Shown here: positions 5,638 to 26,508 of the stretch, piece after piece | Numbering within the stretch: position 1 is the stretch's first letter | Layout of the letters: each line of letters begins with the position of its first letter | Source: a virus | Virus record (IMG/VR): IMGVR_UViG_3300039098_000035 | Coordinates: 1 to 64,000 of that record | DNA length: 64,000 bases | Direction: 5' to 3' (one strand) | The notes under the pieces: generated by a model | The model's input: only the letters and a program-made list of their open reading frames with translations | Database searches by the model: none | What the model was told of the DNA's origin: nothing | Program-made: the position numbers and the translations under genes

Positions 5638-5678
5638 GTCAATGTCTCCTGTCTCGGTGAATGCGATCACCTACCTTA

Positions 5679-5706
5679 ATTATACCATGAGGAAACGTGA
5701 TGTCAA
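5679..5706 (-). promoter_or_regulatory. sigma70-type promoter for the helicase and leftward arm
   Basis: TTGACA-16 bp-TATAAT with extended TG. Confidence 0.75.
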
Positions 5707-5789
5707 GCATGATTCTGTGTTTTTTCTGTGTCGCCTGTGCATTTCCCCACTGCGGGGCCAAGGTAAGCGATATAGGGTAGTTGACCAAA

Positions 5790-6040
5790 AGATATACTAC
5801 CAGAGAATGTGCCCTAGGTAAGGGATAAAACGTTGACCGGTAGTATTAGTAGTACAAGTGTACATCTTTCTTGGAGTTATTCTGTAAAAAATGCCCAAGT
5901 ATATTATATATATACGGGAGAGAACCGAGCAGCAAAAAAGTTCTATATACTACTAATACTACTAATACTACTATTGGTTAGCCACGAAGGGATTTCCCAG
6001 TGTTTCACATATACTACCCCATAAACTACATATACTACCT
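5790..6040. repeat. Iteron-like ATACTAC cluster (candidate origin or terminus)
   Basis: ATACTAC at 5794, 5947, 5956, 5965, 6011 and 6032; inverted copy at 5840. Confidence 0.55.
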
Positions 6041-6372
6041 TGACCAATTATCGTGAATTGAGATTGATATCTCTATGGAGACAAGGAAAGGTTGACTAAT
6101 ATATATATATATATATTACCCCTAAAACACAACCCCCCAATTAAGAACCTCCCCCTACCCATACCATAAGCATAACGTACATGTATCATGCCGTAGGCAC
6201 TAAGTCTAAGATGCGACAGCTTCCGACCATCACACCAGTGACACCCTCGGAATTTCCGTGGTTAACAGTGTAAAAACACAGACTGTGTATTTATGGAGGA
6301 ACTTAACGCAAGCAAAACTTAGTAATCATTATTATACACATTGTCGATATGTCCTATGGTTTACGGGTAACT

Positions 6373-6399
6373 CAAACAAACCAAACAAACCAAACAAAC
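6373..6399. repeat. Tandem 9-mer (CAAACAAAC)x3
   Basis: Read directly; an (AT)n run also lies at about 6099-6116. Confidence 0.8.
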
Positions 6400-6533
6400 T
6401 AGACACTCATGACCATCCACACCCACTACCTGCACGCCAGTGCCCCTCATCGCCCCCTCTTCGCCCACGCAGTGTATAAAACAATTACACCGTTAGTCTC
6501 TCTACTACTCTCGTAAGACCGGAGGTGAAACAC

Positions 6534-6752
6534 ATGGCTAAAGATATTTATTTAACTAAGAAAGTTGAGAACAATGATGCTGTCCGCACCATTGAGATGC
6601 CTGATGACCGAGGAATCAATCGTAGTGTATCTGTACACTTCGACCAATCCAAAGCTGAGAATGGCTTTGCAAAAGGTCAACTTTTGTCAGAAGTAGTAGA
6701 AGGAGATTACATCTACACTTGGTCTGATGCTCAACCAGAACCGCTGAAATAA
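6534..6752 (+). CDS. Hypothetical early protein, first gene of the rightward arm
   Basis: GGAGGTG RBS before ATG 6534; followed by a terminator. Confidence 0.75.
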   Translation: MAKDIYLTKKVENNDAVRTIEMPDDRGINRSVSVHFDQSKAENGFAKGQLLSEVVEGDYIYTWSDAQPEPLK

Positions 6753-6768
6753 TAGCGGTTCTTTTTTC
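6737..6768 (+). terminator. Intrinsic terminator
   Basis: AGAACCGCT-loop-AGCGGTTCT followed by a T run. Confidence 0.8.
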
Positions 6769-6825
6769 TCTAACCACTATAAGCTCAGTATGTTACTGGG
6801 CTTATAAAATTAAGGAGGTTCTATA

Positions 6826-7269
6826 ATGTTTTTAGATCTAATACCCATTTCCGCGCAACAAAAAAATATGCGTAACTACCTCACTCCTAAGGAGTGGGAT
6901 ATCTTACGCCGTATCACCTACAAAAAATATGCATACAAATGCGCTATTTGTGGTGGTCAAGGTAGAAGTCATCCCGTTGAAGCACATGAAGAGTGGGCCT
7001 TCTCACATGATACCATCATTCTCATTGATGTCGTAGCACTGTGTCCCACTTGTCATCGTCTGAAACATATTAACTTCTACCGTCATGACCTGCACACATT
7101 CCGTGCACTCATTCGCAGATACGCGTATCAACATAACATTACTGAAGCCATCGCACGTACGTTCATTTACAACCAGTTTGACATGTACGATATGCAGATG
7201 CTGAAACAATGGAAGCTTGACACATCTTCCATACAACGATACTATAAGGAGGTAACATGTACACATTAA
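6826..7269 (+). CDS. HNH endonuclease
   Basis: CAICGG...EAHEEW...VALCPTCHRLKH; AAGGAGG RBS. Confidence 0.85.
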   Translation: MFLDLIPISAQQKNMRNYLTPKEWDILRRITYKKYAYKCAICGGQGRSHPVEAHEEWAFSHDTIILIDVVALCPTCHRLKHINFYRHDLHTFRALIRRYAYQHNITEAIARTFIYNQFDMYDMQMLKQWKLDTSSIQRYYKEVTCTH

Positions 7270-7454
7270 ACTATAAAGACATTTCCCAAGCTACCCAGCT
7301 ATCATTATCTACAGTGAAGAGGTTCTTTTCCCCCAAAGGGAACCCTTCACTGAAGACAGCTATCAAAATAGCTGCACACTTTAACATCACTCTAAACGCA
7401 GTCAATGAGCTGCGTAACATTATCATCACTAAGAAGGAGGAAGATAATGAATAG
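7257..7454 (+). CDS. Cro/XRE-family HTH regulator
   Basis: YKDISQATQLSLSTVKRFFS...NPSLKTAIKIAAHF. Confidence 0.8.
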   Translation: MYTLNYKDISQATQLSLSTVKRFFSPKGNPSLKTAIKIAAHFNITLNAVNELRNIIITKKEEDNE

Positions 7455-7578
7455 GATACAACTACATGATTCACTAATGGACATCATAACTATTATGTCC
7501 AAAGGAAATCCAGGTGCTGTCAATTGTATTATGAAGGCAGAGGTACACCATTTATACTCGGTGATGCCTCATGAATAA
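7447..7578 (+). CDS. 43-aa hypothetical protein (possibly a truncated remnant)
   Basis: Strong RBS; MNRIQLHDSLMDIITIMSKGNPGA... Confidence 0.5.
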   Translation: MNRIQLHDSLMDIITIMSKGNPGAVNCIMKAEVHHLYSVMPHE

Positions 7579-7795
7579 AGTTATAAATGATTTATTAAAT
7601 GAACTTGAAGATACAGGAAGCATAAAAAAATTAATCCCTGCATTATTATCACTAAAAAAGCACATCAACGCACAGCAAGATAAATTGGATAGGATAGAGG
7701 GAATGATATTTAGTGATAAACCAATGTCTTATCGTTTAGCATTAACAAAGGAAATACTAAAGGAGGAAGATAATGCGTTATCTACAAAAGATTAA
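7571..7795 (+). CDS. Hypothetical protein
   Basis: 74-aa ORF within the operon. Confidence 0.6.
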   Translation: MNKVINDLLNELEDTGSIKKLIPALLSLKKHINAQQDKLDRIEGMIFSDKPMSYRLALTKEILKEEDNALSTKD

Positions 7796-8046
7796 TGTTT
7801 GATGCTATGATAACAGTTCTTCGTACTGTGTACCATCAAACACAAAAACCAATGGAAGATCGTGTACCTCGTGCACGTGTTCTTATTGAGCTACTCGATG
7901 CCGTTAACCACATTTCCATGTACATGAAAGATGAACTTAACCAAGGTTCACATCCTAACTACGCTCGTGAAAAATTATTAGCTGCAAAGCAACGCCTTGA
8001 CTGGGCATACAAGGAGGTACTCCATGTTACAGACAGTACTAGCTAA
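7795..8046 (+). CDS. Hypothetical protein
   Basis: 83-aa ORF with TAATG coupling. Confidence 0.6.
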   Translation: MFDAMITVLRTVYHQTQKPMEDRVPRARVLIELLDAVNHISMYMKDELNQGSHPNYAREKLLAAKQRLDWAYKEVLHVTDSTS

Positions 8047-8278
8047 GATTGATAAACATCTTGGTACTAACATTCCCTTTAATATCCAAGGCAACACTGT
8101 GATTCATGGTAAAGATACCTTCATTGTCAAGCCAGGACACATGGACGAATTTCTACGCATACGTCTCGCTAAGTACACCTTACTGCTTGAAAATATTGAG
8201 AATAAAAATTCCAATATTGGCATCTTCTTACAAAAATGGAATGCCCTTTCCTTAGAAAGTAGACAACACTATGATTAA
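8024..8278 (+). CDS. Hypothetical protein
   Basis: AAGGAGGT RBS before ATG 8024. Confidence 0.65.
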   Translation: MLQTVLAKIDKHLGTNIPFNIQGNTVIHGKDTFIVKPGHMDEFLRIRLAKYTLLLENIENKNSNIGIFLQKWNALSLESRQHYD

Positions 8279-8432
8279 ATACCTTGTATCCACAATCATA
8301 GTGGTTGTTGCTTTCGTAGCCATATACTTTGTAGCCACTACTCCCATAGGATTTACTATCTTTATAATTACACTTTGTGTACTTATATTCATATTGTTAG
8401 TTCTTCTAGTAAAGCTGGTTATCTATGGCTAG
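8271..8432 (+). CDS. 53-aa membrane protein with 2 TM helices
   Basis: Read manually: MIKYLVSTIIVVVAFVAIYFVATTPIGFTIFIITLCVLIFILLVLLVKLVIYG. Confidence 0.55.
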   Translation: MIKYLVSTIIVVVAFVAIYFVATTPIGFTIFIITLCVLIFILLVLLVKLVIYG

Positions 8433-8559
8433 TCCTGGACGTACCATCCGTAGAAAACAAGAGCGTAAACAAAAAGCAATTCATAAGAAACAACAGCAAG
8501 CTCGTAAACAAATCATCAACAATCTAACTAAGAAGGAGAAAGAACATGCGATTAAATGA
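8425..8559 (+). CDS. 44-aa basic protein
   Basis: Read manually: MASPGRTIRRKQERKQKAIHKKQQQARK... Confidence 0.5.
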   Translation: MASPGRTIRRKQERKQKAIHKKQQQARKQIINNLTKKEKEHAIK

Positions 8560-9127
8560 ATACTTTAAAGCAAAAGGCTCAATATCTAACATAGTATTTT
8601 GCCGTGTACCTAAAGGTCTTACATACATAGCAGACGGTAACGTTTATGTGTATGAAGGTAACCTTCATGTACGTATCAAACGTACTGATGGTGTTGGTAA
8701 CCCTTATCCTGCACCTCTTAAAGACTTTCAAATATATCTACGAGAGAAATACATTCCTACTATTACTAACTTTTACTACAGTAAGAAGCAACATACTTTA
8801 CATGTTGTTACTAAGAAGCATGATAAAGATATACGTACAAGCGTAAAGAAATCAGACAACGATAGTGATGATATTCAATATGCCTTTCTGTACGCTATGA
8901 ATATGCATACACTTCATATCACATCATCACAATTAAAGAAACGTATCGATGATGCTTTAGTACCTTTTAAAATAAGAGAGAAGAAACGTATCATATCACG
9001 TCCCTTTCAAACAAACGTTAGTAAAGAAATTGTAATGCTTATCTTAACACACATGTTAGTTAAACACATTGGTAAAGAAAAATTTCTTACATTATATAAA
9101 CAAGCAGTACTTGCCTATGATAAATAG
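8546..9127 (+). CDS. Hypothetical protein
   Basis: 193-aa ORF with AAGGAG RBS. Confidence 0.75.
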   Translation: MRLNEYFKAKGSISNIVFCRVPKGLTYIADGNVYVYEGNLHVRIKRTDGVGNPYPAPLKDFQIYLREKYIPTITNFYYSKKQHTLHVVTKKHDKDIRTSVKKSDNDSDDIQYAFLYAMNMHTLHITSSQLKKRIDDALVPFKIREKKRIISRPFQTNVSKEIVMLILTHMLVKHIGKEKFLTLYKQAVLAYDK

Positions 9128-9371
9128 TAAACAAGATATGGAAGTATCTAGATTGCTAGGTAACATAGCTAAAGAAAGATCAGCACCACCTCGAAGGTGT
9201 TCTACTACATTCGGAGACAAAGTAATCCGAGCAGCTGTATCCCAGCTAAATAAAAACAAACGCGCTTATGTATTCTACCACTATCAAATAGAAACAATTA
9301 AAAAGAAGTTATCATTTGATATAATAGTAGAAGATATGGGCAGCGAAGTCTACCAACTAAGGAGAAAATGA
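9117..9371 (+). CDS. Hypothetical protein
   Basis: ATG 9117 overlaps the end of the previous gene. Confidence 0.55.
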   Translation: MINSKQDMEVSRLLGNIAKERSAPPRRCSTTFGDKVIRAAVSQLNKNKRAYVFYHYQIETIKKKLSFDIIVEDMGSEVYQLRRK

Positions 9372-9802
9372 TGGACAAAATAAAAGCACTACAAGAAAAC
9401 ATAATTAAAATTAATGCAATGATTGAAACTAATAAGGTAGCACATCAAAAAGCAATGGCACCTTATGAATTACAGGCAACAAATTTATTAAACAATCTAC
9501 GAGAAGTTAAAGAAAAAATTAGTACTGAAAAAATATATCTTAAGCTACGTACCTTAACCTATGTAAATGAAATACTATCTATCGAAGGCAATAAACATAT
9601 CATAGTATCTTCACGTATCAATCGTATTGTATTGCAACAACGTAATGTATGGGATGGTAAAGCATATGTTGCAATATACGCAGCTATCATTGATTACAAT
9701 CCTAAAGGTACAGCAAGAACAGAACGTTTAAGCATTGATATAGGACATAATAAAATAATGGCTGATGCAAATTTAGAACACATCACTAAACTATTATTAT
9801 GA
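9368..9802 (+). CDS. Hypothetical protein with N-terminal coiled coil
   Basis: 144-aa ORF with AAGGAG RBS. Confidence 0.7.
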   Translation: MMDKIKALQENIIKINAMIETNKVAHQKAMAPYELQATNLLNNLREVKEKISTEKIYLKLRTLTYVNEILSIEGNKHIIVSSRINRIVLQQRNVWDGKAYVAIYAAIIDYNPKGTARTERLSIDIGHNKIMADANLEHITKLLL

Positions 9803-9993
9803 CAGGCTTCTATCCCCCGATACCAAAAAAATATAGCATAATGTATACTAAAGGTACCTATGCCATAGTTCGTATACGTGATTACACATCTGAAGAAGGA
9901 CCACATGTCAAACAAATAACTGCTGAACGCCACAGCAATGATGCTCGCCGACAATGTGCCTTGATGAATGAAGCAAATAGAACAAACTCTTAA
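9799..9993 (+). CDS. Hypothetical protein
   Basis: 64-aa ORF with ATGA overlap. Confidence 0.55.
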   Translation: MTGFYPPIPKKYSIMYTKGTYAIVRIRDYTSEEGPHVKQITAERHSNDARRQCALMNEANRTNS

Positions 9994-10207
9994 AGCAATG
10001 CGTACTAATAAGGTACAGAGTATGATCGTATTAGTTATTGGATTACTTTCAAGTATCTTAAGCTTATCTTCTGTATACTTTCTACTAACGTACCTTAGTG
10101 TACTATGCTTTACATTATACATCTTATATTTTAAATGGCGTGAACAAAAATTAAATCAACAGCTATCATACTATGTAGCTATGCTAGCAAAGGAGGAGGA
10201 ACAATGA
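9968..10207 (+). CDS. Small membrane protein
   Basis: Long hydrophobic segment MIVLVIGLLSS...LYILYF. Confidence 0.6.
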   Translation: MKQIEQTLKAMRTNKVQSMIVLVIGLLSSILSLSSVYFLLTYLSVLCFTLYILYFKWREQKLNQQLSYYVAMLAKEEEQ

Positions 10208-10836
10208 AGTATCCAAGATTAGACTTCTGTGAATCACAGTACTATGAGAATGACATAGGTATTACTATGGCAGAGCTTGAAGATCATTGCTCTATGAGCA
10301 CTAGCTCTATACATATTACAGATAGAAAAGCTTTACTTGAAGCCTTTGAACTCTGTGTTACATATCCTTTTCAAACAGACATGGCTAATGACATGTCATT
10401 AATGGATTATCAAACTATTAGAGAAAGATATTTACGTGCAAACATGGACGATGTTATTAAAAATTTAATTACACTGTGCCATATAGAATCAAGAGCTTAT
10501 GAACTGCCTGTACGTAGTGCTAAAGGAATACTTACAAAAATATTTGGAGATACCCACGGCTATGGAGATTTCTATCAACGCTTTGTAGCATTAAAAGATT
10601 TTAAAATTATTTTAAAAGATCACACTAGTTTTATAGCTATGCTTAGAACTATTTTAACAACGCCTCAACAAAAGGTATTGTTTATGGATGATGCTGCACA
10701 TGCGGCTAAGCAAAAAACTGAACGCATTATACACCTAAAGAAACAATTAATACAAGCAAACCAAAAAATAATATCTGGTACTAGTGAAGTAACTAACATT
10801 ACTAGATTGTTAAAAGAGTTAGGAGAATCTGTATGA
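10204..10836 (+). CDS. Hypothetical protein
   Basis: 210-aa ORF with AAGGAGG RBS. Confidence 0.75.
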   Translation: MKYPRLDFCESQYYENDIGITMAELEDHCSMSTSSIHITDRKALLEAFELCVTYPFQTDMANDMSLMDYQTIRERYLRANMDDVIKNLITLCHIESRAYELPVRSAKGILTKIFGDTHGYGDFYQRFVALKDFKIILKDHTSFIAMLRTILTTPQQKVLFMDDAAHAAKQKTERIIHLKKQLIQANQKIISGTSEVTNITRLLKELGESV

Positions 10837-11579
10837 ACATACAAGTAGCACTACCACACATGGTAACTTGTGTATACAACTGTAAGTTCTGTTGCAATAC
10901 AATGCACACCCAGTTCAAAGGACATAGACTACCTGCTGTACTGTATGCTACTAAACTTGCAGAGTTTTTAAAGAAACAACCTCGACCTCTTACTATCGTA
11001 TTAACAGGAGAGAACGAACCATTACAATCATTAGAATATGTCCTTGCTGTTCTTACATTTGTACCTGATGATGTTACAGTTGAGCTAACATTAAAAGGAT
11101 ATAAATTAAAACAATTTCTTAAAGATTTTAAAACAAGTAAACGTGTTGACTTAATCAACTTCAGTGTATCATCAACAGGTAAGACATCATACTCTGAAAT
11201 GTATGATAAACAATTAGCCTTAGCACAGCTATGTAAACAACAAGGCATTACTACTCGCTTTACATTTCTAATGACTAAACTATTATCACCTCATATGGTA
11301 CGTCATGCAACACGTAGTAAATGGATAGATCAAATCACATTAAAAAAATTACAAGGCAGTACACCATACATTAAAAAGAATGCTAATGAATATACTGCTT
11401 CAGTAATTACAGAAGATGCAACTAATATCATGCCTGGTAAACGTTTCACTACATTACAGTATAATAATCAAGAGATATGGATAGACAGAGACTGTCAAGA
11501 CGGTGACTATCTTATCTTTAGACCTGATGGAAATGTATACATTACATGGACATCAAAGGTACCATTTGAGTTTTTATAG
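10833..11579 (+). CDS. Radical SAM protein
   Basis: CVYNCKFC (CxxxCxxC) and LTGENEP (GGEP-like); AGGAG RBS. Confidence 0.82.
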   Translation: MNIQVALPHMVTCVYNCKFCCNTMHTQFKGHRLPAVLYATKLAEFLKKQPRPLTIVLTGENEPLQSLEYVLAVLTFVPDDVTVELTLKGYKLKQFLKDFKTSKRVDLINFSVSSTGKTSYSEMYDKQLALAQLCKQQGITTRFTFLMTKLLSPHMVRHATRSKWIDQITLKKLQGSTPYIKKNANEYTASVITEDATNIMPGKRFTTLQYNNQEIWIDRDCQDGDYLIFRPDGNVYITWTSKVPFEFL

Positions 11580-11913
11580 ATTCAACGAGCCTAGTCCAGA
11601 AGCGTATATAATACGCTGTTATAATCAAGAACCATGTGCTATACATGTACATGGTATATCAGGCGATATTGATAAATGGACAGGACCTACATATAAAACA
11701 GAAGCTAATGCATATATTAATGCGTACATATGGTTACGCAAAAAACAAGCTGATGAATTGCACGCTCTTGAACTTGTCATGGCACGTAAAGGCATCGAAG
11801 GATATCCTAGTAATAATAACTTATTTCTAAAACGTCATCCTGAATTACGATCAAAACAACATCAAGAATTGTATAAAGAAATCCAACTTGGATTAAAGGA
11901 GAGACGTAAATGA
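11503..11913 (+). CDS. Hypothetical protein (start uncertain)
   Basis: ORF fills the operon; ATGA overlap with the next gene. Confidence 0.55.
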   Translation: MTILSLDLMEMYTLHGHQRYHLSFYRFNEPSPEAYIIRCYNQEPCAIHVHGISGDIDKWTGPTYKTEANAYINAYIWLRKKQADELHALELVMARKGIEGYPSNNNLFLKRHPELRSKQHQELYKEIQLGLKERRK

Positions 11914-12107
11914 ACGATCATGAATTAATCCATGAAGCCATGCGTCTAGCAGATAGACATAACTACATAGATGTAAGAGATATCTCAGCTAAGATAGCAG
12001 CTAACATAATGCACGGGTATTCTAACCATGCATATATCATGAGACAAGTAACTAATCTGCGTACATTAGCAGATGACTTGCTAAAATTTAAGAAGAAGGT
12101 GAAGTAA
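11910..12107 (+). CDS. Hypothetical protein
   Basis: 65-aa ORF with AAGGAG RBS. Confidence 0.65.
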   Translation: MNDHELIHEAMRLADRHNYIDVRDISAKIAANIMHGYSNHAYIMRQVTNLRTLADDLLKFKKKVK

Positions 12108-12109
12108 CA

Positions 12110-12487
12110 ATGAAAAAATTATTATTATTATTAATTGTACTATCGTTTACATTAGTGGGATGTGATGCTGCTGATACAGCAACACACAACCTAAAGGACC
12201 AAGCAGATAACTTCGGTTTACTCCGAAGAATCATAGTCTTTCACGGTGTAACAGGTGAAGTAACTATGGAAATTGAAGGATACTGTAGCATAACTGATCA
12301 AACTACTCAACTTGAAGTAGTATGTGAAGTAGGTAGAGATAAGTATTATATAAATTATGTACGCTTAGGTGATAATACTGAATACTTAGTAGAACAATTA
12401 GAACCTATTACTGTTAGCACTTACCATTATGTACGTAGGATCCGGCCACAGACAGCGATACCTGATATCGTTATAGACATAGAATAA
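12110..12487 (+). CDS. Conserved phage lipoprotein
   Basis: MKKLLLLLIVLSFTLVGC lipobox; ADTATHNL..ADNF..RRIIVF.GVT...IEGYCSI pattern common in phage lipoproteins. Confidence 0.8.
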   Translation: MKKLLLLLIVLSFTLVGCDAADTATHNLKDQADNFGLLRRIIVFHGVTGEVTMEIEGYCSITDQTTQLEVVCEVGRDKYYINYVRLGDNTEYLVEQLEPITVSTYHYVRRIRPQTAIPDIVIDIE

Positions 12488-12657
12488 TGTATGAAGTAAT
12501 TATTATTAAAGCACCTCGTACTGTACTCATATGTAACAAGGAACATCTATCACGTGTCCTTGAATTACTTAAACCTAATGCTCATGCTATGGTAGAGCGT
12601 ATTGAAATGTGTGAAAATGTATACGACTGTAGACAAGTCACACCAACAGTGATATAA
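12487..12657 (+). CDS. 56-aa hypothetical protein
   Basis: Read manually (MYEVIIIKAPRTVLICNKEHL...); TAATG coupling. Confidence 0.55.
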   Translation: MYEVIIIKAPRTVLICNKEHLSRVLELLKPNAHAMVERIEMCENVYDCRQVTPTVI

Positions 12658-12658
12658 T
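12630..12658 (+). promoter_or_regulatory. sigma70-type promoter ahead of the structured RNA
   Basis: TAGACA-17 bp-TATAAT with extended TG (TGATATAAT). Confidence 0.75.
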
Positions 12659-12664
12659 TAAATT

Positions 12665-13186
12665 AGTAATACATCCTTTAGATGTTTACGCAACTGAACC
12701 CCCGTTAAGAGCGGCAGTATAGGGAGGAGACAATACTTACATTGTGCCCGACATTCCAATCTACGAGCATTGATTGGGTGTCACTGTATGTGTTCGGACA
12801 TTGATTAAAAAATTGCGCAGATGTCTGAGCATGTACAGTGACATGAACCTAAGAACCCATGTCGCACTTATCCCTTACATAGCATGGTGGATAGAATTGT
12901 GTAACGATAAAACGATACGCTATAGACCTATTCACACATCCCCTTCCTTAGGGTCATCGAGAGGTGGCCCTTCCTACTAACACACAGATGTATAAGACAG
13001 CAGAGCCGGCAGCTCAAGCCGCAGGATTACCGCACCACAGCAGAGTGGATTCCATTCCTATGATAGAGCAGCATCTGTTTATTATAACCATCATGGTGGT
13101 ATCGGATGTAGTTCCGATAAAGGTATATAACATGTGGTTATATACCTTCCACCATTAATATATGCCCACACATGTGGGTTATTTTT
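12665..13186 (+). ncRNA. Candidate large structured ncRNA or leader RNA of unknown class
   Basis: No credible ORF. 23-bp stem with 4 G-U pairs (12779-12843), GAGA-tetraloop hairpin (12950-12971), closing helix 12984/13078, perfect three-way junction (13093-13155); promoter before and terminator-like hairpin after. Confidence 0.7.
13164..13186 (+). terminator. Putative intrinsic terminator or attenuator
   Basis: GCCCAC-acat-GTGGGT followed by TATTTTT. Confidence 0.55.
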
Positions 13187-13201
13187 ATATACTAAGGAGG
13201 T

Positions 13202-13438
13202 ATGATGAAACATAAATGTATCACTTCACCGAAGATTCAATTAGTATGGACGTGTGCTTACCGCTCATGTGCTGAAATAATTACGCACCAATTAACAGAG
13301 AAAGCAGAGATTGGTTATGATGTGCTCATGTTGTGTGAACAACACTTTAATACATGGAAAAAAGCGCATCCCAAAATAAAATTAGAGGAGGAAACAGATG
13401 TTAAATCAAGTAGTATTAGTAGGTCGTCTAGTCTATGA
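13202..13438 (+). CDS. Small Cys/His-rich (possibly Zn-binding) protein
   Basis: CAYRSC...LCEQHF; AAGGAGGT RBS. Confidence 0.6.
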   Translation: MMKHKCITSPKIQLVWTCAYRSCAEIITHQLTEKAEIGYDVLMLCEQHFNTWKKAHPKIKLEEETDVKSSSISRSSSL

Positions 13439-13736
13439 CCCTGTAATTAAAACACTAGATGACGGTAGAAAAGTTATGAAGATCACCCTTGCAATTAAGC
13501 GAGGTTATAAGAACGCAGAAACAAATGAGTATGATACAGACTTTATAGTTTGTACACTATGGGAAGGCATTGCAGAAAGTACAGTTGAATACTGTAAAAA
13601 GGGTGCAACAATAGGTGTTAAAGCACGCCTTGCTCAAAGATATTTTAAGTATGGAGATAACAAAACATTCAGCTATCCTGAAATCGTTGCTGAAAAAATT
13701 ACATTCATCAACACTAAGAATAATTATGACGATTGA
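13398..13736 (+). CDS. ssb: Single-stranded DNA-binding protein (bacterial SsbB-like, no long acidic tail)
   Basis: MLNQVVLVGRL..DP...TDFI.CTLW.GIAE...EYCKKG..IGV...EIVAEKITF. Confidence 0.95.
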   Translation: MLNQVVLVGRLVYDPVIKTLDDGRKVMKITLAIKRGYKNAETNEYDTDFIVCTLWEGIAESTVEYCKKGATIGVKARLAQRYFKYGDNKTFSYPEIVAEKITFINTKNNYDD

Positions 13737-13914
13737 TGAGGTAATTACACGCCTTCAACAAGTACCTAAAGATACCCCTATCTATACCATAGGCACTCTC
13801 TTCTTTGTAACAGGTACAGATCGTGACTATGTAACTACTGCAAAATCTATACCTGATTTTTTAAAAACTCATCACATTAAAACACTTGACAATTATGCCA
13901 AGGTGTTGAAATGA
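13726..13914 (+). CDS. Hypothetical protein
   Basis: ATG 13726 (MTIDEVITRLQQVPKD). Confidence 0.55.
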   Translation: MTIDEVITRLQQVPKDTPIYTIGTLFFVTGTDRDYVTTAKSIPDFLKTHHIKTLDNYAKVLK

Positions 13915-14183
13915 AACGTAAACATTGGCAAGGATATGGTACTGTCCAAGCTAAAGTAATACTGCGTACCTCTAGGAAACTAATGATTAGTGTACTAGGT
14001 TCACATGAATGCGGATTAACATTCCATAATCCTGATAACTATAGACTAGCCCAATGGCTAGGTACTAAAGGACTTGGTAGATTTAAAGCTTCAGATGTTG
14101 CAGCATATACAGTAGAAGAAATGTCTACTGATGAAGTAATGTACACCATTATACTAAAACAAAGGGCTACCGTACCATGGTAG
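13911..14183 (+). CDS. Hypothetical protein
   Basis: 90-aa ORF with ATGA overlap. Confidence 0.65.
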   Translation: MKRKHWQGYGTVQAKVILRTSRKLMISVLGSHECGLTFHNPDNYRLAQWLGTKGLGRFKASDVAAYTVEEMSTDEVMYTIILKQRATVPW

Positions 14184-14209
14184 CCTTAATAACTTAAGGA
14201 GAATAAACT

Positions 14210-15115
14210 ATGACACAAGCAGAAATACTTACAAGAATGCGCGATGATTTAAATAACGGTATCATGAAAGTAGTAGCATCCGATGGCTATAGATACTACA
14301 CTGATGTATTAACAGAAGAAATGAATATCCCTTTAACAACTACTGCAGAAACAGCGAAGCTATACAAAAAATTAGTTATCGATGCAGCTATTGCAGTGAA
14401 TACTCCATCAGCACAAACAGGAAATCCTTTCCTTAGACTGCCTCGTGTATCTATGTATATAGGACAGCCTGATACAGGTAAAACATACAAAGCTATTAAG
14501 GTAGCTGAATCATGTGGTCTTGATCCATTAATTAAAATGTGTAGAGACTCATTAAACTTAGAGACTTTGCTTGAGGACTTCACATTAAAAGATGGTAAGC
14601 CTATCTTTGAAGAATCATTAGCACTTAAAATGTTATCCGGTACTGACAATGGAGTCATCATTCTTGATGAGTTCAATACATTACTAACAGGTGTAATGAA
14701 AACATTACAACCTATCTTTGATGACACATCAACAACGTTTGAATACAGAGGTAAAGTATATAATAAGAATCTTAACTGTAAATTCATAGTAACATTGAAC
14801 GATAAAGATAAAGGTATCAGTGTAGTACCTGATGCCATACTATCACGTTCAAAATTAGAATGGTTCGAACCTGTACCTGTACCTATCTTAGCACAGTGGA
14901 CAAAGGTTCCACTTAAATGGATACAAACTATATACAATGTCTATAAAATAGCAGGCTTACTAGGTGTATTCGGTACTCGTCAGATAAAGATGTTAAGACA
15001 ACTACCTGATGTTGCCTCTATTAAGAACCACCTATATGGTTTATGCATGATGAAGAACATCGATGCTAAAATCATAGATCAATTACAGACAACTAATATG
15101 TTGAATCAATTATGA
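14210..15115 (+). CDS. MoxR/CobS-like AAA+ ATPase
   Basis: GQPDTGKT, VIILDEFN, FIVTLN, PDAILSR. Confidence 0.88.
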   Translation: MTQAEILTRMRDDLNNGIMKVVASDGYRYYTDVLTEEMNIPLTTTAETAKLYKKLVIDAAIAVNTPSAQTGNPFLRLPRVSMYIGQPDTGKTYKAIKVAESCGLDPLIKMCRDSLNLETLLEDFTLKDGKPIFEESLALKMLSGTDNGVIILDEFNTLLTGVMKTLQPIFDDTSTTFEYRGKVYNKNLNCKFIVTLNDKDKGISVVPDAILSRSKLEWFEPVPVPILAQWTKVPLKWIQTIYNVYKIAGLLGVFGTRQIKMLRQLPDVASIKNHLYGLCMMKNIDAKIIDQLQTTNMLNQL

Positions 15116-15534
15116 TAGACTTAGTTACAGTTAAATTAGTACGAGAAAAAAGTATACCTTATCAATGTAACTCTCCTGAAAAAACATATGAACTACTACA
15201 AAAATTAATAGGAGACAAACCTCAAGAACATTTTATAACTTTATGTATAGATGCTAAAGGTGTTGTAAATAATGCAAGTATTATACATATAGGTGCCATT
15301 AATAAAAGTGTAATAAGTCCAAGAGCTATCTTTCGTACGGCTATATTAAGTAACGCAGTAGCAATTATTATAGGACATAATCATCCTAGTGGTAACCCAA
15401 CACCTAGTCCAGAAGATAAACTTACAACAAAAGAATTAATAAAAGCAGGAACAATTTTAGATATTAAAATTCTTGATCATATTATTATAGGTAATAATAT
15501 ATACTATTCATTTAGAGAGAGAGGTCAAATGTAA
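15112..15534 (+). CDS. radC: RadC-like JAB/MPN domain protein
   Basis: QEHF...PRAIFRTAILSNA..IIIGHNHPSGNPTPSPED...LDHIIIG. Confidence 0.93.
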   Translation: MIDLVTVKLVREKSIPYQCNSPEKTYELLQKLIGDKPQEHFITLCIDAKGVVNNASIIHIGAINKSVISPRAIFRTAILSNAVAIIIGHNHPSGNPTPSPEDKLTTKELIKAGTILDIKILDHIIIGNNIYYSFRERGQM

Positions 15535-15535
15535 C

Positions 15536-17134
15536 ATGGCTAATGCAGCAGGAAAATTAAATATACCTGACCCTAAACCTAAACAACATAAGGACCCTAG
15601 TAAAGCAGCATTCATTAGCATCCTAGAATTTATTACCAATACATTCTATCGTACTAATGAGAACGAAGAGATCACAGTACAGATGGGTAAAACAGGTGTA
15701 AATTATTATGATACAAAACGTATCATGTTAGATGAAAGTATCATTGATGCTTATGGTAAGCTCAACATACCTAGATTCATAGTATATTATCATGAACTAG
15801 GACACCACTTATATTCTCAAGGTTCTTTTGAACTGCTTAAGAAGTGGTCCAAGCTTAATAAAGGTGGACCTATTGAATATCATAAGAGGTACCATCATCT
15901 AACTAATTGGATCGAAGATTATTATATTGAGAAAAAATTACTTAGTGAACATACATACTTAACAGATGTACTTAACTGTCTTAAGTTAGTACCCCCTGAG
16001 TATGATATCAATGCATTAGAATATGCATTCAATTTTTATTATATACATCAAGCACCAACACCAGCGTTACATTACGCAGACCAAGTAACTTTTATTTCTT
16101 ATCTTAAAAACTTAGATAAATTACGTTCACGTAATAATACTAAGTTCGGACGAGGAATTCTTTCAACGTTAAGTGTAAAGAGATCTACTGAAACAACATT
16201 CGTTGTACTCTTAATAGAGTTCTATGAATGGTGTGTCCTTAAAAAAATACTACCTAAAGATAATCCTATGCCGCCTCTATCTAATCCTAACAATCATATA
16301 CAACCGAAAGGTAAGAATGGCACAGGTAAAGGTAAAGGTAAAGATAAAGGTACATCATCCCCTCATTCAGGTCAAGTGGGAAAGAATGTTACATACGTAG
16401 AACAGTTTCATGTTGGTAAAGCTACTACTCTATTTAAAGATGAAGTAGCAGGAGAAAACAAGATGATACATAAAGAACTATTAGATATGTCGCAACGTTT
16501 ACAGGCTGACACATCCACATTAGATGGCTTGTTTAGTACTAAACATAAAGACAGTGCTATCATCCAACCAAAAATTATATTACCTAACTTCTTCAATCCT
16601 AAAAGATTAATAGATCAAGTACTCTTTAGACAAAAGCAACATACCTATATGAATGCTGCAATCTTTAGAGATATAAGTGGTAGTACTAGTGGAGATATTC
16701 ATACACTAATGGAACATGTAACAGCACGCTTACATGCAGAGATACCTGTAGATATAACGTACTACTTGTACTCATCAGGTAAAATAAGTGTTGTTGAAGT
16801 ACCTTATATACCCTGGCTTAAGAGACGCGATAAGCCTACGTTATATATTAATAATCCTTTAGTGCAACAGCTTACTGGAGGAACTAACAGTGATGCAATC
16901 GCTGATGTAATAACACAACAACTATCAGATAAATGGTTAAACATAATCATAACTGATGGTGATCTTAATAGTCTTATGAATAGAGATAACATTCATGAAC
17001 TGTTAAAGAATGTATTCGTAGTAGCTGTTGATGCTACTGTCGAACCTGGTCTATTAGGTGTACCTGTTAATAGTATAGTTGATATAGAAAATATAACTCC
17101 TGTATTATCTACGATAAACTTAGACAGAACATAA
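15536..17134 (+). CDS. Zincin (HExxH) plus vWA domain protein, CobT-like partner of the MoxR ATPase
   Basis: YYHELGHH...NWIEDYYIE; GK-rich linker; MIDAS DISGS, GGT, IITDG. Confidence 0.85.
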   Translation: MANAAGKLNIPDPKPKQHKDPSKAAFISILEFITNTFYRTNENEEITVQMGKTGVNYYDTKRIMLDESIIDAYGKLNIPRFIVYYHELGHHLYSQGSFELLKKWSKLNKGGPIEYHKRYHHLTNWIEDYYIEKKLLSEHTYLTDVLNCLKLVPPEYDINALEYAFNFYYIHQAPTPALHYADQVTFISYLKNLDKLRSRNNTKFGRGILSTLSVKRSTETTFVVLLIEFYEWCVLKKILPKDNPMPPLSNPNNHIQPKGKNGTGKGKGKDKGTSSPHSGQVGKNVTYVEQFHVGKATTLFKDEVAGENKMIHKELLDMSQRLQADTSTLDGLFSTKHKDSAIIQPKIILPNFFNPKRLIDQVLFRQKQHTYMNAAIFRDISGSTSGDIHTLMEHVTARLHAEIPVDITYYLYSSGKISVVEVPYIPWLKRRDKPTLYINNPLVQQLTGGTNSDAIADVITQQLSDKWLNIIITDGDLNSLMNRDNIHELLKNVFVVAVDATVEPGLLGVPVNSIVDIENITPVLSTINLDRT

Positions 17135-17149
17135 GAAATGAGGTATAAT
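17121..17149 (+). promoter_or_regulatory. sigma70-type promoter ahead of the primase-polymerase block
   Basis: TAGACA-17 bp-TATAAT. Confidence 0.6.
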
Positions 17150-17153
17150 ATTT

Positions 17154-17438
17154 ATGAAATATGTACTCGTAAAATCTAGACATAAGCACACACAATTAAA
17201 TGGAACTGTACCCATATTTAAACAGGTAACTAACCATCAAATTTTTGATTTTGATTACCATAAAAAAATTATACATAATGTTTTAGAGCAGCATACAGGA
17301 GAACTCTTACTGTATGTAACAGGGTTAACACCTTTACTTATTTCAGTGATTAACTACTGCAGGTTATTTAAAATACCTGTAGTTTTATTCCACTTTAATA
17401 GTTCAACTCAACGTTATATACCACAGAGTATCATATGA
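17154..17438 (+). CDS. Small phage protein with a CARF/SAVED-like Rossmann pattern
   Basis: SRH...LLLYVTGLTPLLISVINYC...VVLFHFNSSTQRYIPQ. The fold call is inference. Confidence 0.6.
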   Translation: MKYVLVKSRHKHTQLNGTVPIFKQVTNHQIFDFDYHKKIIHNVLEQHTGELLLYVTGLTPLLISVINYCRLFKIPVVLFHFNSSTQRYIPQSII

Positions 17439-18382
17439 TAATCTATCAATTAGTATTTGGTATAGATTCAGGCCAAGTTAACTGTGTGTTTCACCCTGAT
17501 ACCAGGGCATCAGCAGGTATCAGTAACATAGGACAATTTAACTGCTTCACATGTGGAGCTAAGGCACACAGTCCTGTAAGTTTTGCGTCTCGATACTTTG
17601 GTATCGGATCAGAGCGTGCCAAAAGAATTAGTAATTCATTGGACCGTATACAAAAATATAAATATAAACAAAACCCTATTGAACCTGACCAACGTGCATA
17701 CCTACAAGCCTGTGGTATAAGCGATACTGTAATAGATAAATTCTTTTTCAGTTCGTCAGTACACAAACTAATATTTAATCATACTTGGAATGGTATGTCT
17801 ATAGGTTATACATGGTTCAATGATCCTATCTTAAAAAGCCACAACGCAGGTGCGCCAAAGTATAAGTACGACAGGAATAATATAGGAGGTATGGTTACAC
17901 CCTATGATTCAGCTGAACGATACAATACTTTAGTTGTGTGTGAAGGTGAGAAGGATATGTTAACAGCGCTATCAATGGGAGTTGTTAATGCAGTAGCAAA
18001 AGTAGGTGGAGCAAAATCCTACATTATGGGTGGGCGTAACTTTGAAAACAAAAACATTATCATAGCTTATGACTGTGATAAGTATGGTAGATTAGGAGCA
18101 GAGCAAGATGCTACGCTATTAACAAACCGCTTCAACTGTAAAGTAAAAGTAATAAACTTAGGCTTACAAGATAAGGAAGACTTGAATGATTACTTCATCA
18201 AGTATGGGCACACGGTCCAAGAATTTAATACCCTTATTAAAGCAACACCTATATTTGTACCAGTACCAGTGGTACCTCATGAAAAACTTCTAACGTATGT
18301 TAATGGTCTATCTGCGGATGACATAGACACACTAGAAAATATACTAAAAGAAAAGAAGGAGAAAGACAATGTCAAAAATTAG
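17435..18382 (+). CDS. DNA primase (Zn finger + Toprim)
   Basis: CVFHPD...FNCFTCG; PKYKY; VVCEGEKD; IIIAYDCD; EDLNDYF. Confidence 0.9.
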   Translation: MIIYQLVFGIDSGQVNCVFHPDTRASAGISNIGQFNCFTCGAKAHSPVSFASRYFGIGSERAKRISNSLDRIQKYKYKQNPIEPDQRAYLQACGISDTVIDKFFFSSSVHKLIFNHTWNGMSIGYTWFNDPILKSHNAGAPKYKYDRNNIGGMVTPYDSAERYNTLVVCEGEKDMLTALSMGVVNAVAKVGGAKSYIMGGRNFENKNIIIAYDCDKYGRLGAEQDATLLTNRFNCKVKVINLGLQDKEDLNDYFIKYGHTVQEFNTLIKATPIFVPVPVVPHEKLLTYVNGLSADDIDTLENILKEKKEKDNVKN

Positions 18383-18824
18383 TTTACAAGACATCTTAGT
18401 AGAAGATGCAAAGAATGCTAAGTCATCAGACTTCATTCAAGATACATTAGCACCAGGTAAATACCAGATACAAGTCTTAGAATTTGTAGAGGAAGATACG
18501 TATCAATATATTTCAACAATAGTTAATAAGAAAAAGTATAACTTCTTCTATAACTATTATCTAAAAGATTCAACAGATCTTAATGCGGATACTATTAATT
18601 TTATTAAAGCGTTAGCTACTGTTGCAGTAACCGCTAAGACTACTCTATTAGAGATTGCTAATTCAGCTATCGGTTCTACCTATGAAGTTGAAATTTATAA
18701 CTACGTATCTAAGAGTGGTAAAAATAAAGGAAAGACTATGCATAACATTAATTACAGAGCATTACCTATACGTACAACAACTCAAGTTAATATTGATGTA
18801 GTGGAGGACGACCTACCTTTCTAA
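18369..18824 (+). CDS. Phage SSB-like protein (DUF669-like)
   Basis: LAPGKYQIQV N-terminal motif and acidic C-terminus VVEDDLPF. Confidence 0.6.
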   Translation: MSKISLQDILVEDAKNAKSSDFIQDTLAPGKYQIQVLEFVEEDTYQYISTIVNKKKYNFFYNYYLKDSTDLNADTINFIKALATVAVTAKTTLLEIANSAIGSTYEVEIYNYVSKSGKNKGKTMHNINYRALPIRTTTQVNIDVVEDDLPF

Positions 18825-18878
18825 AAATATAAACCTTGGGGTGTATAGGTTAACCCCAAATAATTTTAAGGAGGTATC

Positions 18879-19127
18879 ATGGATTACGGTGACGAAATTA
18901 AATTAGAAATGAAAATAAATAATACAGTATACGCATATGAATATGAACAAGCAGTGCAAGAAAATAAATGGATAGATGTTGATGGACGTCATCTTGATAT
19001 ATCTGGAATGGGAATGCAGCACATAGCTAATTGTATTAAGCTGTGTAGAACCAAACCAAATTGGCGTCCAGACATGTTAAGACTACTATTAATAGAATAT
19101 AATAAAAGGAGGATACCAAACAAATGA
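18879..19127 (+). CDS. Hypothetical phage protein
   Basis: 82 aa with AAGGAGGT RBS; W.D..G..L.I..M...HIANCI. Confidence 0.7.
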   Translation: MDYGDEIKLEMKINNTVYAYEYEQAVQENKWIDVDGRHLDISGMGMQHIANCIKLCRTKPNWRPDMLRLLLIEYNKRRIPNK

Positions 19128-20449
19128 AACACGGTTATCTATTATACACAGGGTATGGTAAGACTAAGTTAGTACTAGATAAAATTTTAGCTGTACCCCA
19201 CAAACCAAGAACATTATTAATATCTACAAAAAATGTTGTTGAGTCTTCTTGGATTGAACAGATTAATGAATGGTATCCAGGACAAATCAGTTATGATTAT
19301 ATAACAGGGTCTATCAAAGAAAAAGATAGACTGAATATTATCAACAAACTTACTGATATCCTAGCGATGAATACATCTATGTTAAATTGGTACATATCAC
19401 ATACGTGTACCATTAAACGTAAAGCAAAACTTAAGAATGGAGAGATTAAAATATACTATAATGATCACGAAATCTTAAGTCGTTTTGATTTACTCATTAT
19501 AGATGAATCAAGCCTGTTTAAAAATTCACAATCAGAACGGTTTAAACTAATTAAGAAGTGGGCACATAAGATAAAGCATGTCATCATCCTTAGTGCTACA
19601 CCTACACCTAAAAACATAGAAGATCTATGGGCACAGATATATCTATTAGATGGTGGCCAACGATTAGGTAAAAATATTACAGCATTTAGAAATAAATGGG
19701 GCATACCTGTACCATTACCTAATGGGCATAACAAGTATCAATACTCACAAGAAGCTATTGATGAGATACTTAATCTAGTACGTGATATCACTACCAGTAT
19801 ACCTAAACCTGATAAGCCTTTGTTCCCTGAACCTATACTAACTAAAGGTATGATTACACCTGATGCTAGTACAGCTGCATTGCTTAAAGAATTCAAGCGT
19901 GATTATATTACACGATTAGATTCTACTAAAATGTTAGTAGCGTTCAGTGTTAATCAACTCATAACTAAAGTAAATCAAATAGCAAGTGGTGATGTGTATT
20001 ATAAGAAGAATGTATTCCCACTTAACGATCTTAAAATGAAAGTATTAAAGAAACGTTTATCATTACAAACAACACCGGTAATGATTATGTATACATATAA
20101 GTTTGACAAAGTTAAACTATTAGAACTACCAGGTGCAAGGTTACTATCCAAGCCACAAGACTTTAAAGATTGGAACAACAACCTAATACCTATAGGTATA
20201 CTGTCACCCTTTAGTGCAGCACATGGACTTAACTTACAACACAGTGACTGTCGTGAAATGATATGGTTCTCTCCTATATGGGACACAGAGAAATGGATAC
20301 AGACAAACGCACGTGTGTGTAGACGTGGTCAAAAATATATTATAAATATTCTTGTATTAATTATGCGAGGTAGCTATGATGACTACGCATTTAATCTATG
20401 TATAGATAAATTTAAAATACAGTATAATAATTTAGAATTTCTAAGATAG
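19124..20449 (+). CDS. SNF2-like superfamily 2 helicase
   Basis: TGYGKT, IIDESS, LSATP, DLWAQ, AAHGLNLQ, QTNARVCRRGQ. Confidence 0.9.
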   Translation: MKHGYLLYTGYGKTKLVLDKILAVPHKPRTLLISTKNVVESSWIEQINEWYPGQISYDYITGSIKEKDRLNIINKLTDILAMNTSMLNWYISHTCTIKRKAKLKNGEIKIYYNDHEILSRFDLLIIDESSLFKNSQSERFKLIKKWAHKIKHVIILSATPTPKNIEDLWAQIYLLDGGQRLGKNITAFRNKWGIPVPLPNGHNKYQYSQEAIDEILNLVRDITTSIPKPDKPLFPEPILTKGMITPDASTAALLKEFKRDYITRLDSTKMLVAFSVNQLITKVNQIASGDVYYKKNVFPLNDLKMKVLKKRLSLQTTPVMIMYTYKFDKVKLLELPGARLLSKPQDFKDWNNNLIPIGILSPFSAAHGLNLQHSDCREMIWFSPIWDTEKWIQTNARVCRRGQKYIINILVLIMRGSYDDYAFNLCIDKFKIQYNNLEFLR

Positions 20450-20459
20450 GAGATAGACG

Positions 20460-22487: not shown

Positions 22488-22903
22488 TGTATATAAAAGA
22501 TCTTACTAAAGATACAAAGTTATTAAAGAAACAAGGTGATGGATTCTTAGTTGATGTATTAATTAAGGACGGTATAAAAACTATACGTACTACTACTGAT
22601 CCTTTTCTTGCTAAACAATATACTGTAAAAGAAATGTTTGAAGAAGTATATCATAACATGAGTGCTAATGACATTAAAGATGTTCGTACTGCACATGCTA
22701 AAGGTAATGATAGTTATCGTACTGTACTTGCTTATCGTTGTGATAACTACTATGCCCTTAAAACGTCAAATATAAGTTATGGGTATAATAAAGATATGGA
22801 AGCAGAGAAAAAATTATTAATAGAATTAGATTTATCTTATATGATTGAACAAGAAGAGACTGTAATAGAATCTATTGATATCTTAGGAGGCGGCGATGAG
22901 TAA
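22487..22903 (+). CDS. Hypothetical protein
   Basis: ATG 22487 is TAATG-coupled to the polymerase. Confidence 0.65.
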   Translation: MYIKDLTKDTKLLKKQGDGFLVDVLIKDGIKTIRTTTDPFLAKQYTVKEMFEEVYHNMSANDIKDVRTAHAKGNDSYRTVLAYRCDNYYALKTSNISYGYNKDMEAEKKLLIELDLSYMIEQEETVIESIDILGGGDE

Positions 22904-23852: not shown

Positions 23853-23921
23853 TGATATGATAACACAAGATGTTATGTTAGACGCAATAGAAAAAATGAA
23901 AAAACAATTAAGGAGATAACT

Positions 23922-25114: not shown

Positions 25115-25238
25115 CGAAGTAGTAACGTTATTTAAAGAAGCGGGTATGCCTATACCAGATGCATACTTCGATGTAACAGAGGATGGTACTGAGATAGTAA
25201 TCATCCAGAAAGAGGAGGAAGTAAATGGAAAAACTTAA
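25107..25238 (+). CDS. 43-aa acidic protein
   Basis: Read manually: MKDEVVTLFKEAGMPIPDAYFDVTEDG... Confidence 0.55.
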   Translation: MKDEVVTLFKEAGMPIPDAYFDVTEDGTEIVIIQKEEEVNGKT

Positions 25239-26148: not shown

Positions 26149-26164
26149 CTTGGAGGTATTGTAC

Positions 26165-26470: not shown

Positions 26471-26508
26471 ACCATATGCCATGTGTTTCTACGATTCAGG
26501 GTATATAT

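Follow-up and report, generated by a model that had tools for sequence, protein, structure and literature searches.

Few large structured RNAs are known from phages, ROOL and GOLLD among them, and each new class may show what phages do with RNA alone. Other RNAs that invite comparison are the C-rich regulatory RNAs of Firmicutes (RsaE/RoxS) and RNAIII of S. aureus (~514 nucleotides, nt), the lambda pR′-tR′ ('6S' transcript) and HK022 put RNA systems, in which a strong promoter, a leader RNA and a terminator lie ahead of genes, and the early transcripts of T7 and lambda, which carry RNase III sites. In Rfam, we take GOLLD, ROOL and RsaE to be RF01998, RF03087 and RF01820, respectively. ROOL and GOLLD often occur near tRNA islands, according to PMC12286853. 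Here we analysed the first 64 kb (hereafter the window) of the 81.8-kb IMG/VR virus record IMGVR_UViG_3300039098_000035, which belongs to an uncultured marine phage and in which the original prediction, made from the sequence alone, had seen a structured RNA of ~520 nt with its own promoter and terminator-like end at 12630–13190. Our analysis suggests, with fair though not high probability, that this unit is a real self-contained structured RNA gene, and we lean slightly towards an accessory ('moron'-like) non-coding RNA (ncRNA) gene.

Like GOLLD and ROOL, the unit is phage-encoded, hundreds of nucleotides long and richly structured, and its function is not known. It had been placed in their size class, and size and phage origin do fit, but neither model was listed at E ≤ 10 when positions 12400–13400 and 12860–13095 were searched with Rfam 15, and the unit is smaller than GOLLD. 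The phage context is shared with the ROOL/GOLLD neighbourhood, whereas ARAGORN detected no tRNA or tmRNA gene in the 64-kb window. Three partial relatives only are available so far, compared with the GOLLD and ROOL families. A cmscan of the whole window against Rfam 15 gave no match at the gathering score, and at E ≤ 10 the same two regions matched only chance-level microRNA, small nucleolar RNA and small RNA (sRNA) models. Intron, ribozyme, riboswitch, T-box, 6S, RNase P and leader families were all unmatched at this threshold, as were RsaE and the model of the small ribosomal subunit, the likeness to the 16S 3′ end being merely an impression. As Rfam 15 gave no matches, the unit is not ROOL, GOLLD or an intron; the earlier view that it is not tRNA, tmRNA, RNase P, 6S or intron held, and no strong family hit came up to remove its novelty. 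Literature keyword searches, too generic to show absence, retrieved no description of such an RNA. From these comparisons, the RNA appears to match no described family and to belong with the phage-borne structured ncRNAs, its nearest comparators being ROOL and GOLLD in kind and the C-rich regulators in possible mechanism.

A diverged member of a described family beyond the reach of the models (an ORF-less group I or group II intron, ORF standing for open reading frame, or ROOL, GOLLD, a 6S-like RNA or a ribozyme) would fit the size and phage context, as in ROOL and GOLLD, and also the conserved module described below, whose sharp edges and unlike flanks resemble a mobile insert. This is highly unlikely, however, given the empty Rfam and ARAGORN searches. 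Furthermore, the element is single-copy, with no repeat within the genome, and excising 12867–13082 runs straight into a stop codon, with no open frame joined.

A strand-biased fold in a non-coding unit

On the + strand the whole unit is predicted to fold at −168.1 kcal/mol (z −5.69), with none of 100 shuffles as stable, compared to z −2.37 and two of 100 shuffles as stable on the − strand. This minimum free energy (MFE) was the lowest among 37 tiles of 531 nt in this arm, the next being −135.0 kcal/mol, and the other 36 tiles had a mean z of −1.61 (standard deviation 1.52) with one at −6.05. The latter tile (6819–7349), the first of the rightward arm and lying over gene 6826–7269, is the only one comparable to the RNA unit. 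Where a radical-SAM gene overlaps the next ORF, a 200-nt tile (11465–11664) gave z −4.29 on the + strand and −0.74 on the − strand, based on 20 shuffles.

The stability of the unit comes mainly from a 25-bp stem and from the 3′ junction. The stem (12778–12844, + strand, −36.1 kcal/mol) is fully paired, with arms at 12778–12802/12820–12844, a 17-nt A/U-rich loop and six G-U pairs; it contains the 23-bp stem with four G-U pairs (12779–12801/12821–12843) that had been noticed by eye, which is hence borne out and slightly longer than thought. Its G-U pairs would be A-C on the − strand, and in total 11 G-U pairs occur in the confident + strand helices, all of which are mismatches on the − strand. 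RNase III-type enzymes cut duplexes of about this length, from which we infer that the stem may be an RNase III-type processing site. A three-way junction was likewise recovered, at 13093–13155 on the + strand (P 0.95–0.98, −30.3 kcal/mol) and outside the conserved module; it comprises 26 Watson-Crick pairs and no G-U pair, and thus folds equally on both strands.

Two further pairings stood only in part. The proposed long-range helix 12721–12730/12939–12948 is predicted as 7 bp, 12721–12727/12942–12948, and is weak (P 0.43); through it a purine-rich, Shine-Dalgarno (SD)-like AGGGAGGAG on the + strand (12721–12729, mean P unpaired 0.21) would be partnered by the first CCUUCCU (12942–12948), hence one C/U-rich motif is predicted to pair internally with the AGGGAGG at 12721. 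The 8 bp of ACAGAUGU/GCAUCUGU, thought to close a domain, can pair but are not in the MFE fold, where the competing helix 12999–13004/13074–13079 has P 0.31.

The ~530 nt were said to lack a credible ORF, and this was confirmed under the four codes scanned (table 11, table 4, TAG=Q and TAA=Q). With table 11 the longest ORFs in 12660–13190 are weak, at 68 and 64 aa, and the other three codes gave no longer ORF across this interval, ruling out recoded genes in the RNA region. The weak ORFs score like spurious ones, with codon scores of −0.13, 0.08 and 0.05 compared to medians of 0.04 for 121 spurious ORFs and 0.53 for 27 real long genes. None of them has an SD, whereas 21 of the 27 long genes carry one, none has a Pfam match, and the 64-aa ORF had no protein candidate among 5.8 billion clusters. 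GC content reaches 42.6% in the unit and 46.8% in the module 12867–13082, vs ~34–35% in flanking genes. A 20-codon frame from UUG (12742–12804), which may be chance, starts 12 nt past AGGGAGGAG and reads into the 25-bp stem on its 5′ side, with its stop codon at the top of the stem.

The one frame that stays open across the conserved core would encode a 56-aa peptide from an ATG (12988–13158), and manual reading shows that two core changes found in other metagenomes (13032 and 13047) are synonymous third-position changes in it, with 13036 giving His>Tyr. Even so, a small protein gene, whether this peptide or a real 64- or 68-aa ORF, is extremely unlikely: the SD is missing, the codon scores of 0.05–0.08 equal the spurious median, and none of the 5.8 billion clusters shares three 5-residue words, own-contig calls included. 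Moreover, conservation ends at 13082, mid-ORF, and the C-terminal 21 codons fall within perfect hairpins. A small protein was hence rejected on Pfam, the cluster search and codon scores.

A module shared with other marine metagenomes

Contigs of four sequencing runs were compared with positions 12000–14000. The sole run that contains the stretch in full, a marine sediment metagenome and probably the source sample, covers all of them; X2, X3 and X4 denote runs of three other studies, marine or seawater metagenomes from 2017–2018. The only part of the unit found in other metagenomes is a module of ~215 nt on the + strand (12867–13082). It was matched by a 348-nt contig from X2 (12867–13081), a 376-nt contig from X3 (12867–13050, the contig ending there) and a 151-nt contig from X4, which is identical over 13024–13082 and holds a more diverged piece, 13048–13091. 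All three contigs run on into flanks unlike the window (share = 1 for each), and the module boundaries are sharp, with the 5′ edge at 12867 and the 3′ edge at 13081/13082 each seen twice. In these samples the surrounding phage genes gave only short matches of ~34–99 nt. Conservation of the 5′ domain of the RNA (12665–12866) in the relatives does not reach 80%. A high-depth signal for X1 at ~12866–12894 is a match of only ~28 nt.

Across 12973–13081 the X2 contig has four substitutions and no listed gap in 109 nt (~96% identity), 12984–13031 is invariant in both X2 and X3, and 12935–12949 is without a listed difference. Such identity across ocean samples in which the phage genes barely match, together with absence from seven phages of the same family (see below), points to the module being a mobile, self-sufficient RNA under strong constraint.

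The differences are unevenly spread and fall largely in hairpins. Hairpin A (12884–12939, + strand, P 0.82–0.99) has an outer stem that is kept by one-sided changes, A12934>G giving U-G and C12928>T giving G-U, and a hypervariable tip (12895–12928) with many changes, insertions and deletions, where the alignment is ambiguous. Hairpin B (12950–12971, + strand, P 0.98) is the 9-bp hairpin with a GAGA tetraloop and two G-U pairs that the original prediction had described correctly. In X2 and X3 it carries six one-base indels and G12967>T, and when the listed changes were applied by hand a fully paired 10-bp stem resulted (8 Watson-Crick and 2 G-U pairs) with the GAGA loop unchanged. Domain C (12984–13078, + strand) is the most conserved stretch and can close, at low probability, by the 8-bp helix 12984–12991/13071–13078. 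It contains a 9-nt direct repeat, ACAGCAGAG (at 12997 and 13037), and a 4-bp hairpin on the + strand (13035–13048, pairing 13035–13038/13045–13048) with a compensatory double change: C13036>T is joined with G13047>A in both X2 and X3, and as these positions pair in both folds, C-G becomes U-A. An RNA with a defined fold typically shows helices that vary but are compensated, linked by strands that do not change, and the near-invariant joining strands and compensated hairpins seen here support selection on RNA structure.

The RNA in its phage family

The phage has no cultured relative. Its hallmark 532-aa protein finds no match among 50,697 phage records, where PolA is closest (27–31% identity) to proteins of Paenibacillus and Bacillus phages. 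This hallmark (15536–17134) is a marker of the family, with 159 homologues at E ≤ 0.001 and identity down to 41% among the 120 listed, many of them on contigs of 70–83 kb; the closest share 58–72% identity, several of these being encoded on contigs of 60–79 kb. Seven IMG/VR relatives fetched through it have the same order of AAA ATPase, 532-aa protein, primase, 151-aa protein, helicase and PolA, at 38–66% identity, and none has a detectable counterpart of 6826–14210, which includes ssb, a lipoprotein gene and the RNA, the last of these being absent by blastn and nhmmer. Five of the seven were searched as whole records (L193 and L196 as loci only), with nothing detected by BLAST and no match (0/5) to covariance model R1, which on 26 sources matched the window itself only. 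The genes of the rightward arm follow one another without a comparable gap in relative L191. Since the seven relatives hold the replication block without the RNA, ssb and neighbouring genes, the RNA appears to be part of a variable accessory block, of the sort in which host-takeover and exclusion genes are found, and not of the conserved replication machinery. This ruled out the RNA as an integral regulator of the replication block.

Searches at the nucleotide level returned no further homologue. Within the 50,697 phage records, blastn of 12600–13200 gave no match and that of 12930–13090 at E ≤ 10 gave only chance matches of 19–30 nt in 16 records. Exact core words of 22 and 23 nt were absent from IMG/VR, and a core 20-mer found 11 JGI metagenome and 15 GTDB genome stretches, all alike over only 20–26 nt and hence chance matches in GC-rich DNA. 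The doubled 9-mer pattern occurred in at least 119 stretches, none of them module-like among the matches listed (best 78% over 50 nt, E 0.004). Homologous intergenic regions upstream of ssb had been proposed as a check, and none was similar: 34 SSB-anchored loci showed no nucleotide similarity and their 34 whole records only 14–25-nt matches. PolA and the lipoprotein gene, singly and as alignment A1, recovered no IMG/VR relatives. GTDB genome phylum samples were negative (0/401 and 0/401), these samples being small and proving nothing.

This location in a hypervariable accessory block would also suit a transcribed spacer without function, derived from decayed genes or a recombination scar, in which the hairpins merely stabilise or terminate the transcript. 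The rarity of the family, with exact core words lacking real matches in IMG/VR, JGI metagenomes and GTDB species genomes, is consistent with such a spacer, as are tiles at z −4 to −6 within coding sequence and promoter and terminator matches that are not enriched over shuffles. We nevertheless consider a spacer quite unlikely, because X2 remains ~96% identical over 12973–13081 in samples of other studies in which the surrounding genes match over ~34–99 nt only, two hairpins show structure-preserving changes, GC is raised by 8–12 points and the fold has a strong strand asymmetry.

An element acting at the DNA level, such as an origin or primer-transcript region, operator palindromes, or a recombination or packaging site, would account for the three-way junction with its 26 pairs and no G-U, for a perfect 12-bp inverted repeat at 13120–13148 and for the two copies of ACAGCAGAG lying 40 bp apart. 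The strongly conserved primary sequence of the core would be in keeping with protein-binding DNA, and the site is just 5′ of ssb. However, G-U pairs in the stems upstream of the junction are confined to the + strand, which also folds far better than the − strand, and the compensated hairpins point towards pairing within a single strand as the target of selection. Family relatives also replicate without the element, and a better origin candidate exists in the divergent junction 5671–6825, which is partly conserved in relatives (6085–6165). A DNA-level role is therefore very unlikely.

The divergent junction might itself hold an origin or encode a second non-coding RNA. In relatives, the junction of the divergent arms (13113–14749 in L197, and parts of L198 and L199) consists of ~1.6 kb of ORF-poor DNA with a GC content of 41–52% vs ~33%, and it ends in a + strand terminator (1876–1898 in L191), with no Rfam matches in the relatives. 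The window junction 5671–6825 shares only ~75–86 nt with them (6085–6165) and ends in a strong terminator at 6737–6762 (−14.3 kcal/mol).

Transcription signals and a possible leader function

A sigma-70-type promoter-like site, TAGACA-17-TATAAT with an extended TG, is present on the + strand at 12630–12658 as originally described, with 11 of 12 consensus positions. It overlaps the final codons and stop of ORF 12487–12657 and predicts an RNA start at ~12665. Sites of this quality (at least 11/12) are no rarer in shuffled sequence, as four occur in the window on both strands compared to 6.1 ± 2.2 in 30 dinucleotide shuffles, hence the score alone is not beyond chance. All four sites lie at gene junctions, each aimed into the following unit, and the promoter call thus rests on placement and not on score. 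A second TAGACA-17-TATAAT site, at 17121–17157, ends 4 nt ahead of the ATG at 17154, which implies either that the 94-aa ORF there is leaderless or that the site is no promoter.

The final hairpin with a U tract is also present, forming a putative intrinsic terminator on the + strand (13164–13190) with a 6-bp G+C-rich hairpin (13164–13179, P 0.95–0.98, −9.3 kcal/mol) followed by UAUUUUUAUAU. It is among only three + strand terminator-like sites in the 20 kb from 6500 to 26499, and terminator matches are not enriched over shuffles. The predicted primary transcript is thus a non-coding, GC-enriched RNA of ~520 nt on the + strand (12665–13190), as judged from the ORF scan, coding scores, GC content and fold statistics. 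A unit running from promoter to terminator with no ORF has the layout of an independent sRNA/ncRNA gene, the promoter match alone being not beyond chance.

These signals also suit a cis-acting role, in which the 520 nt would serve a 78-aa ORF, ssb and the following genes as a 5′ leader, receiving input from the promoter at 12630 and from upstream genes, with the terminator at 13164 setting read-through or being regulated by a factor, comparable to lambda pR′-tR′ or to long riboswitch or T-box leaders. Between the end of the U tract (13190) and the first base of the SD of the 78-aa ORF (13194) there is no space for a promoter. There is no + strand terminator between the upstream genes and 12630, and such sites are rare in this arm; conserved joining regions with variable hairpins are also typical of riboswitch aptamers. 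We nevertheless regard a leader as unlikely. No alternative pairing that competes with the terminator was found by eye, which ruled out a riboswitch-type terminator/antiterminator switch, and the very stable junction keeps the module ~80 nt from the terminator. Similarity in X2 and X4 stops at 13081/13082, so the module travels without the terminator region, and riboswitch, T-box and leader families are unmatched in Rfam. Finally, ssb has a 10/12 promoter-like site of its own (13292–13321), which could serve it independently, and the seven relatives have the replication block without the RNA.

The same observations weaken the earlier suggestion of a leader or antiterminator gating the replication genes: the AAA-to-PolA block persists in relatives that have no such RNA, no antiterminator alternative to the terminator was found, the junction just upstream is predicted to be very stable, and ssb could use its own site. 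The roles of leader and independent gene are compatible, as any RNA with a leaky terminator at its end will also reduce transcription of the genes behind it.

Several points weigh against a self-contained RNA gene. The promoter match is by count no better than chance, and the terminator lies directly 5′ of the SD of the next gene, as in leaders. As judged from a 200-nt tile (z −1.35), the conserved core has no unusual stability, and the core helices are predicted at low probability. The covariation observed, one compensatory pair (13036/13047) and the rebuilt hairpin B, hangs on one variant lineage (X2 and X3), which amounts to essentially one independent comparison because X2 and X3 have most changes in common. 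The X2 comparison covers 19 of the 22 substitutions and seven of the 14 gap letters, and at a contig depth of 2.5–3.8 for X2–X4 single differences may be errors. Two of the three core substitutions appear synonymous in frame 12988–13158, which fits coding too. As regards its action, no complementary target above chance was found in the phage genome (best 13–17 nt, E 0.5), ruling out an antisense target there, and the mechanism proposed below for the C-rich motifs is one of analogy only.

Neighbouring genes

The unit is placed in the rightward arm, with a 125-aa gene (12110–12487) and a 56-aa ORF (12487–12657) on its 5′ side and the 78-aa ORF (13202–13438) and then ssb (13398–13736) on its 3′ side. 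The 78-aa ORF, together with its SD AAGGAGG (13194–13438, + strand), starts 3 nt after the U tract of the terminator and overlaps ssb by 41 nt; it matches no known family, has a low coding score (0.125) and gave nothing informative in the ESM Atlas. The 125-aa gene matches Pfam Phage_VG64 and a PHROG labelled 'RDF' (recombination directionality factor). It starts with a lipoprotein signal peptide whose last residues are LVGC, with a Cys that is invariant in three sequences, hence its product is more likely an exported lipoprotein, e.g. for superinfection exclusion, than an RDF.

The 532-aa hallmark has no Pfam match, and an alignment of 56 sequences shows an invariant H-E-x-x-H (H86, E87, H90) and D379-x-S381-x-S383, which presumably correspond to a zinc-protease motif and a MIDAS/vWA motif. 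Its gene lies ~420 nt past an AAA_5 (MoxR-like) ATPase (14210–15115), with a 140-aa ORF (15112–15534) between them, which suggests a MoxR-vWA type pair kept across the phage family. On the − strand, a 3534-aa ORF (53345–63952) carries a Peptidase_S74 (endosialidase chaperone) domain at its end and is thus a giant tail fibre or spike, and an N4-like virion RNA polymerase was ruled out as a context for the RNA.

Proposed mode of action and comparison with known RNAs

The C/U-rich strands of the module include UCCCUU at 12871, CCCUUCCU at 12941 and 12968, and UUCCAUUCCU at 13050. The joining region around the first copy of CCCUUCCU (12941–12948, + strand) does not vary in X2 and X3. The second copy (12968–12975, + strand) begins within hairpin B, the 3′ end of which supplies its first four bases, and carries two insertions in both. 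CCTTCC occurs three times in the 526 nt of the RNA and nine times elsewhere in the 81.8 kb, both strands counted, compared to an expectation of 0.03 in the RNA, a comparison made post hoc. The mean P unpaired of the motifs is 0.42–0.57, with a copy in the 3′ junction buried (0.04). The phage uses AAGGAGG-type ribosome-binding sites, with which the C/U-rich strands could pair.

In the reading that we favour, a self-contained RNA gene, host RNA polymerase would start at ~12665 from the promoter 12630–12658 and stop at the terminator 13164–13190, giving an RNA of ~520 nt. An RNase III-type enzyme may cut the 25-bp duplex in the variable 5′ domain (12665–12866) and so release the remainder. The module 12867–13082 would be the functional heart of the RNA, its variable hairpins positioning near-invariant joining strands that, around the GAGA hairpin, carry the anti-SD-like motifs (CCCUUCCU twice, UCCCUU and UUCCAUUCCU), and the three-way junction and terminator hairpin would shield the 3′ end. 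Acting in trans, the exposed C/U-rich strands could pair with purine-rich ribosome-binding sites or bind a factor or protein that recognises such strands, and translation would be re-programmed early in infection. As a side effect the terminator would lower transcription entering the 78-aa ORF and ssb. Although it has precedents among bacterial C-rich RNAs, this specific trans mechanism is doubtful.

A bolder and rather improbable reading is that the module 12867–13082 represents a new, horizontally shuffled class of phage RNA mimicking the anti-SD end of the small ribosomal subunit, by means of its invariant strands, a GNRA-capped hairpin with a CCUUCCU tail directly after it. Such a mimic would soak up ribosome-binding sites, or factors or toxins recognising that end, and would be a translation-hijack or decoy RNA serving as an accessory gene of unrelated marine phages. 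Alternatively, by analogy with ROOL and GOLLD, the RNA might self-assemble into an RNA-only particle. If the C/U-rich strands do target ribosome-binding sites, the RNA would be the equivalent, on a phage, of the Firmicutes C-rich regulators and a simple, testable case of translational takeover. The defined unit of ~520 nt can be synthesised, probed and expressed with no need for phage culture.

Compared with described systems, the unit shares with RsaE/RoxS and RNAIII an own promoter of sigma-70/sigma-A type, an intrinsic terminator and several C/U-rich, SD-complementary motifs between or beside hairpins, and it is similar in length to RNAIII. It differs from RsaE/RoxS in being phage-borne, in having CCUUCC-type motifs and not UCCC in loops, and in the only moderate accessibility of these motifs. 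With lambda pR′-tR′ and HK022 put it shares a promoter, leader RNA and terminator directly 5′ of a gene block. However, no Q-like or qut/put-like element was identified, no downstream + strand terminators call for processive antitermination, and its leader is 2.5 to 8 times longer, with a core whose conservation does not extend to its flanks. The long, near-perfect duplex on an early-type transcript, here of 25 bp, resembles the RNase III sites of T7 and lambda, a likeness that covers only the 5′ stem of the RNA and not the conserved module.

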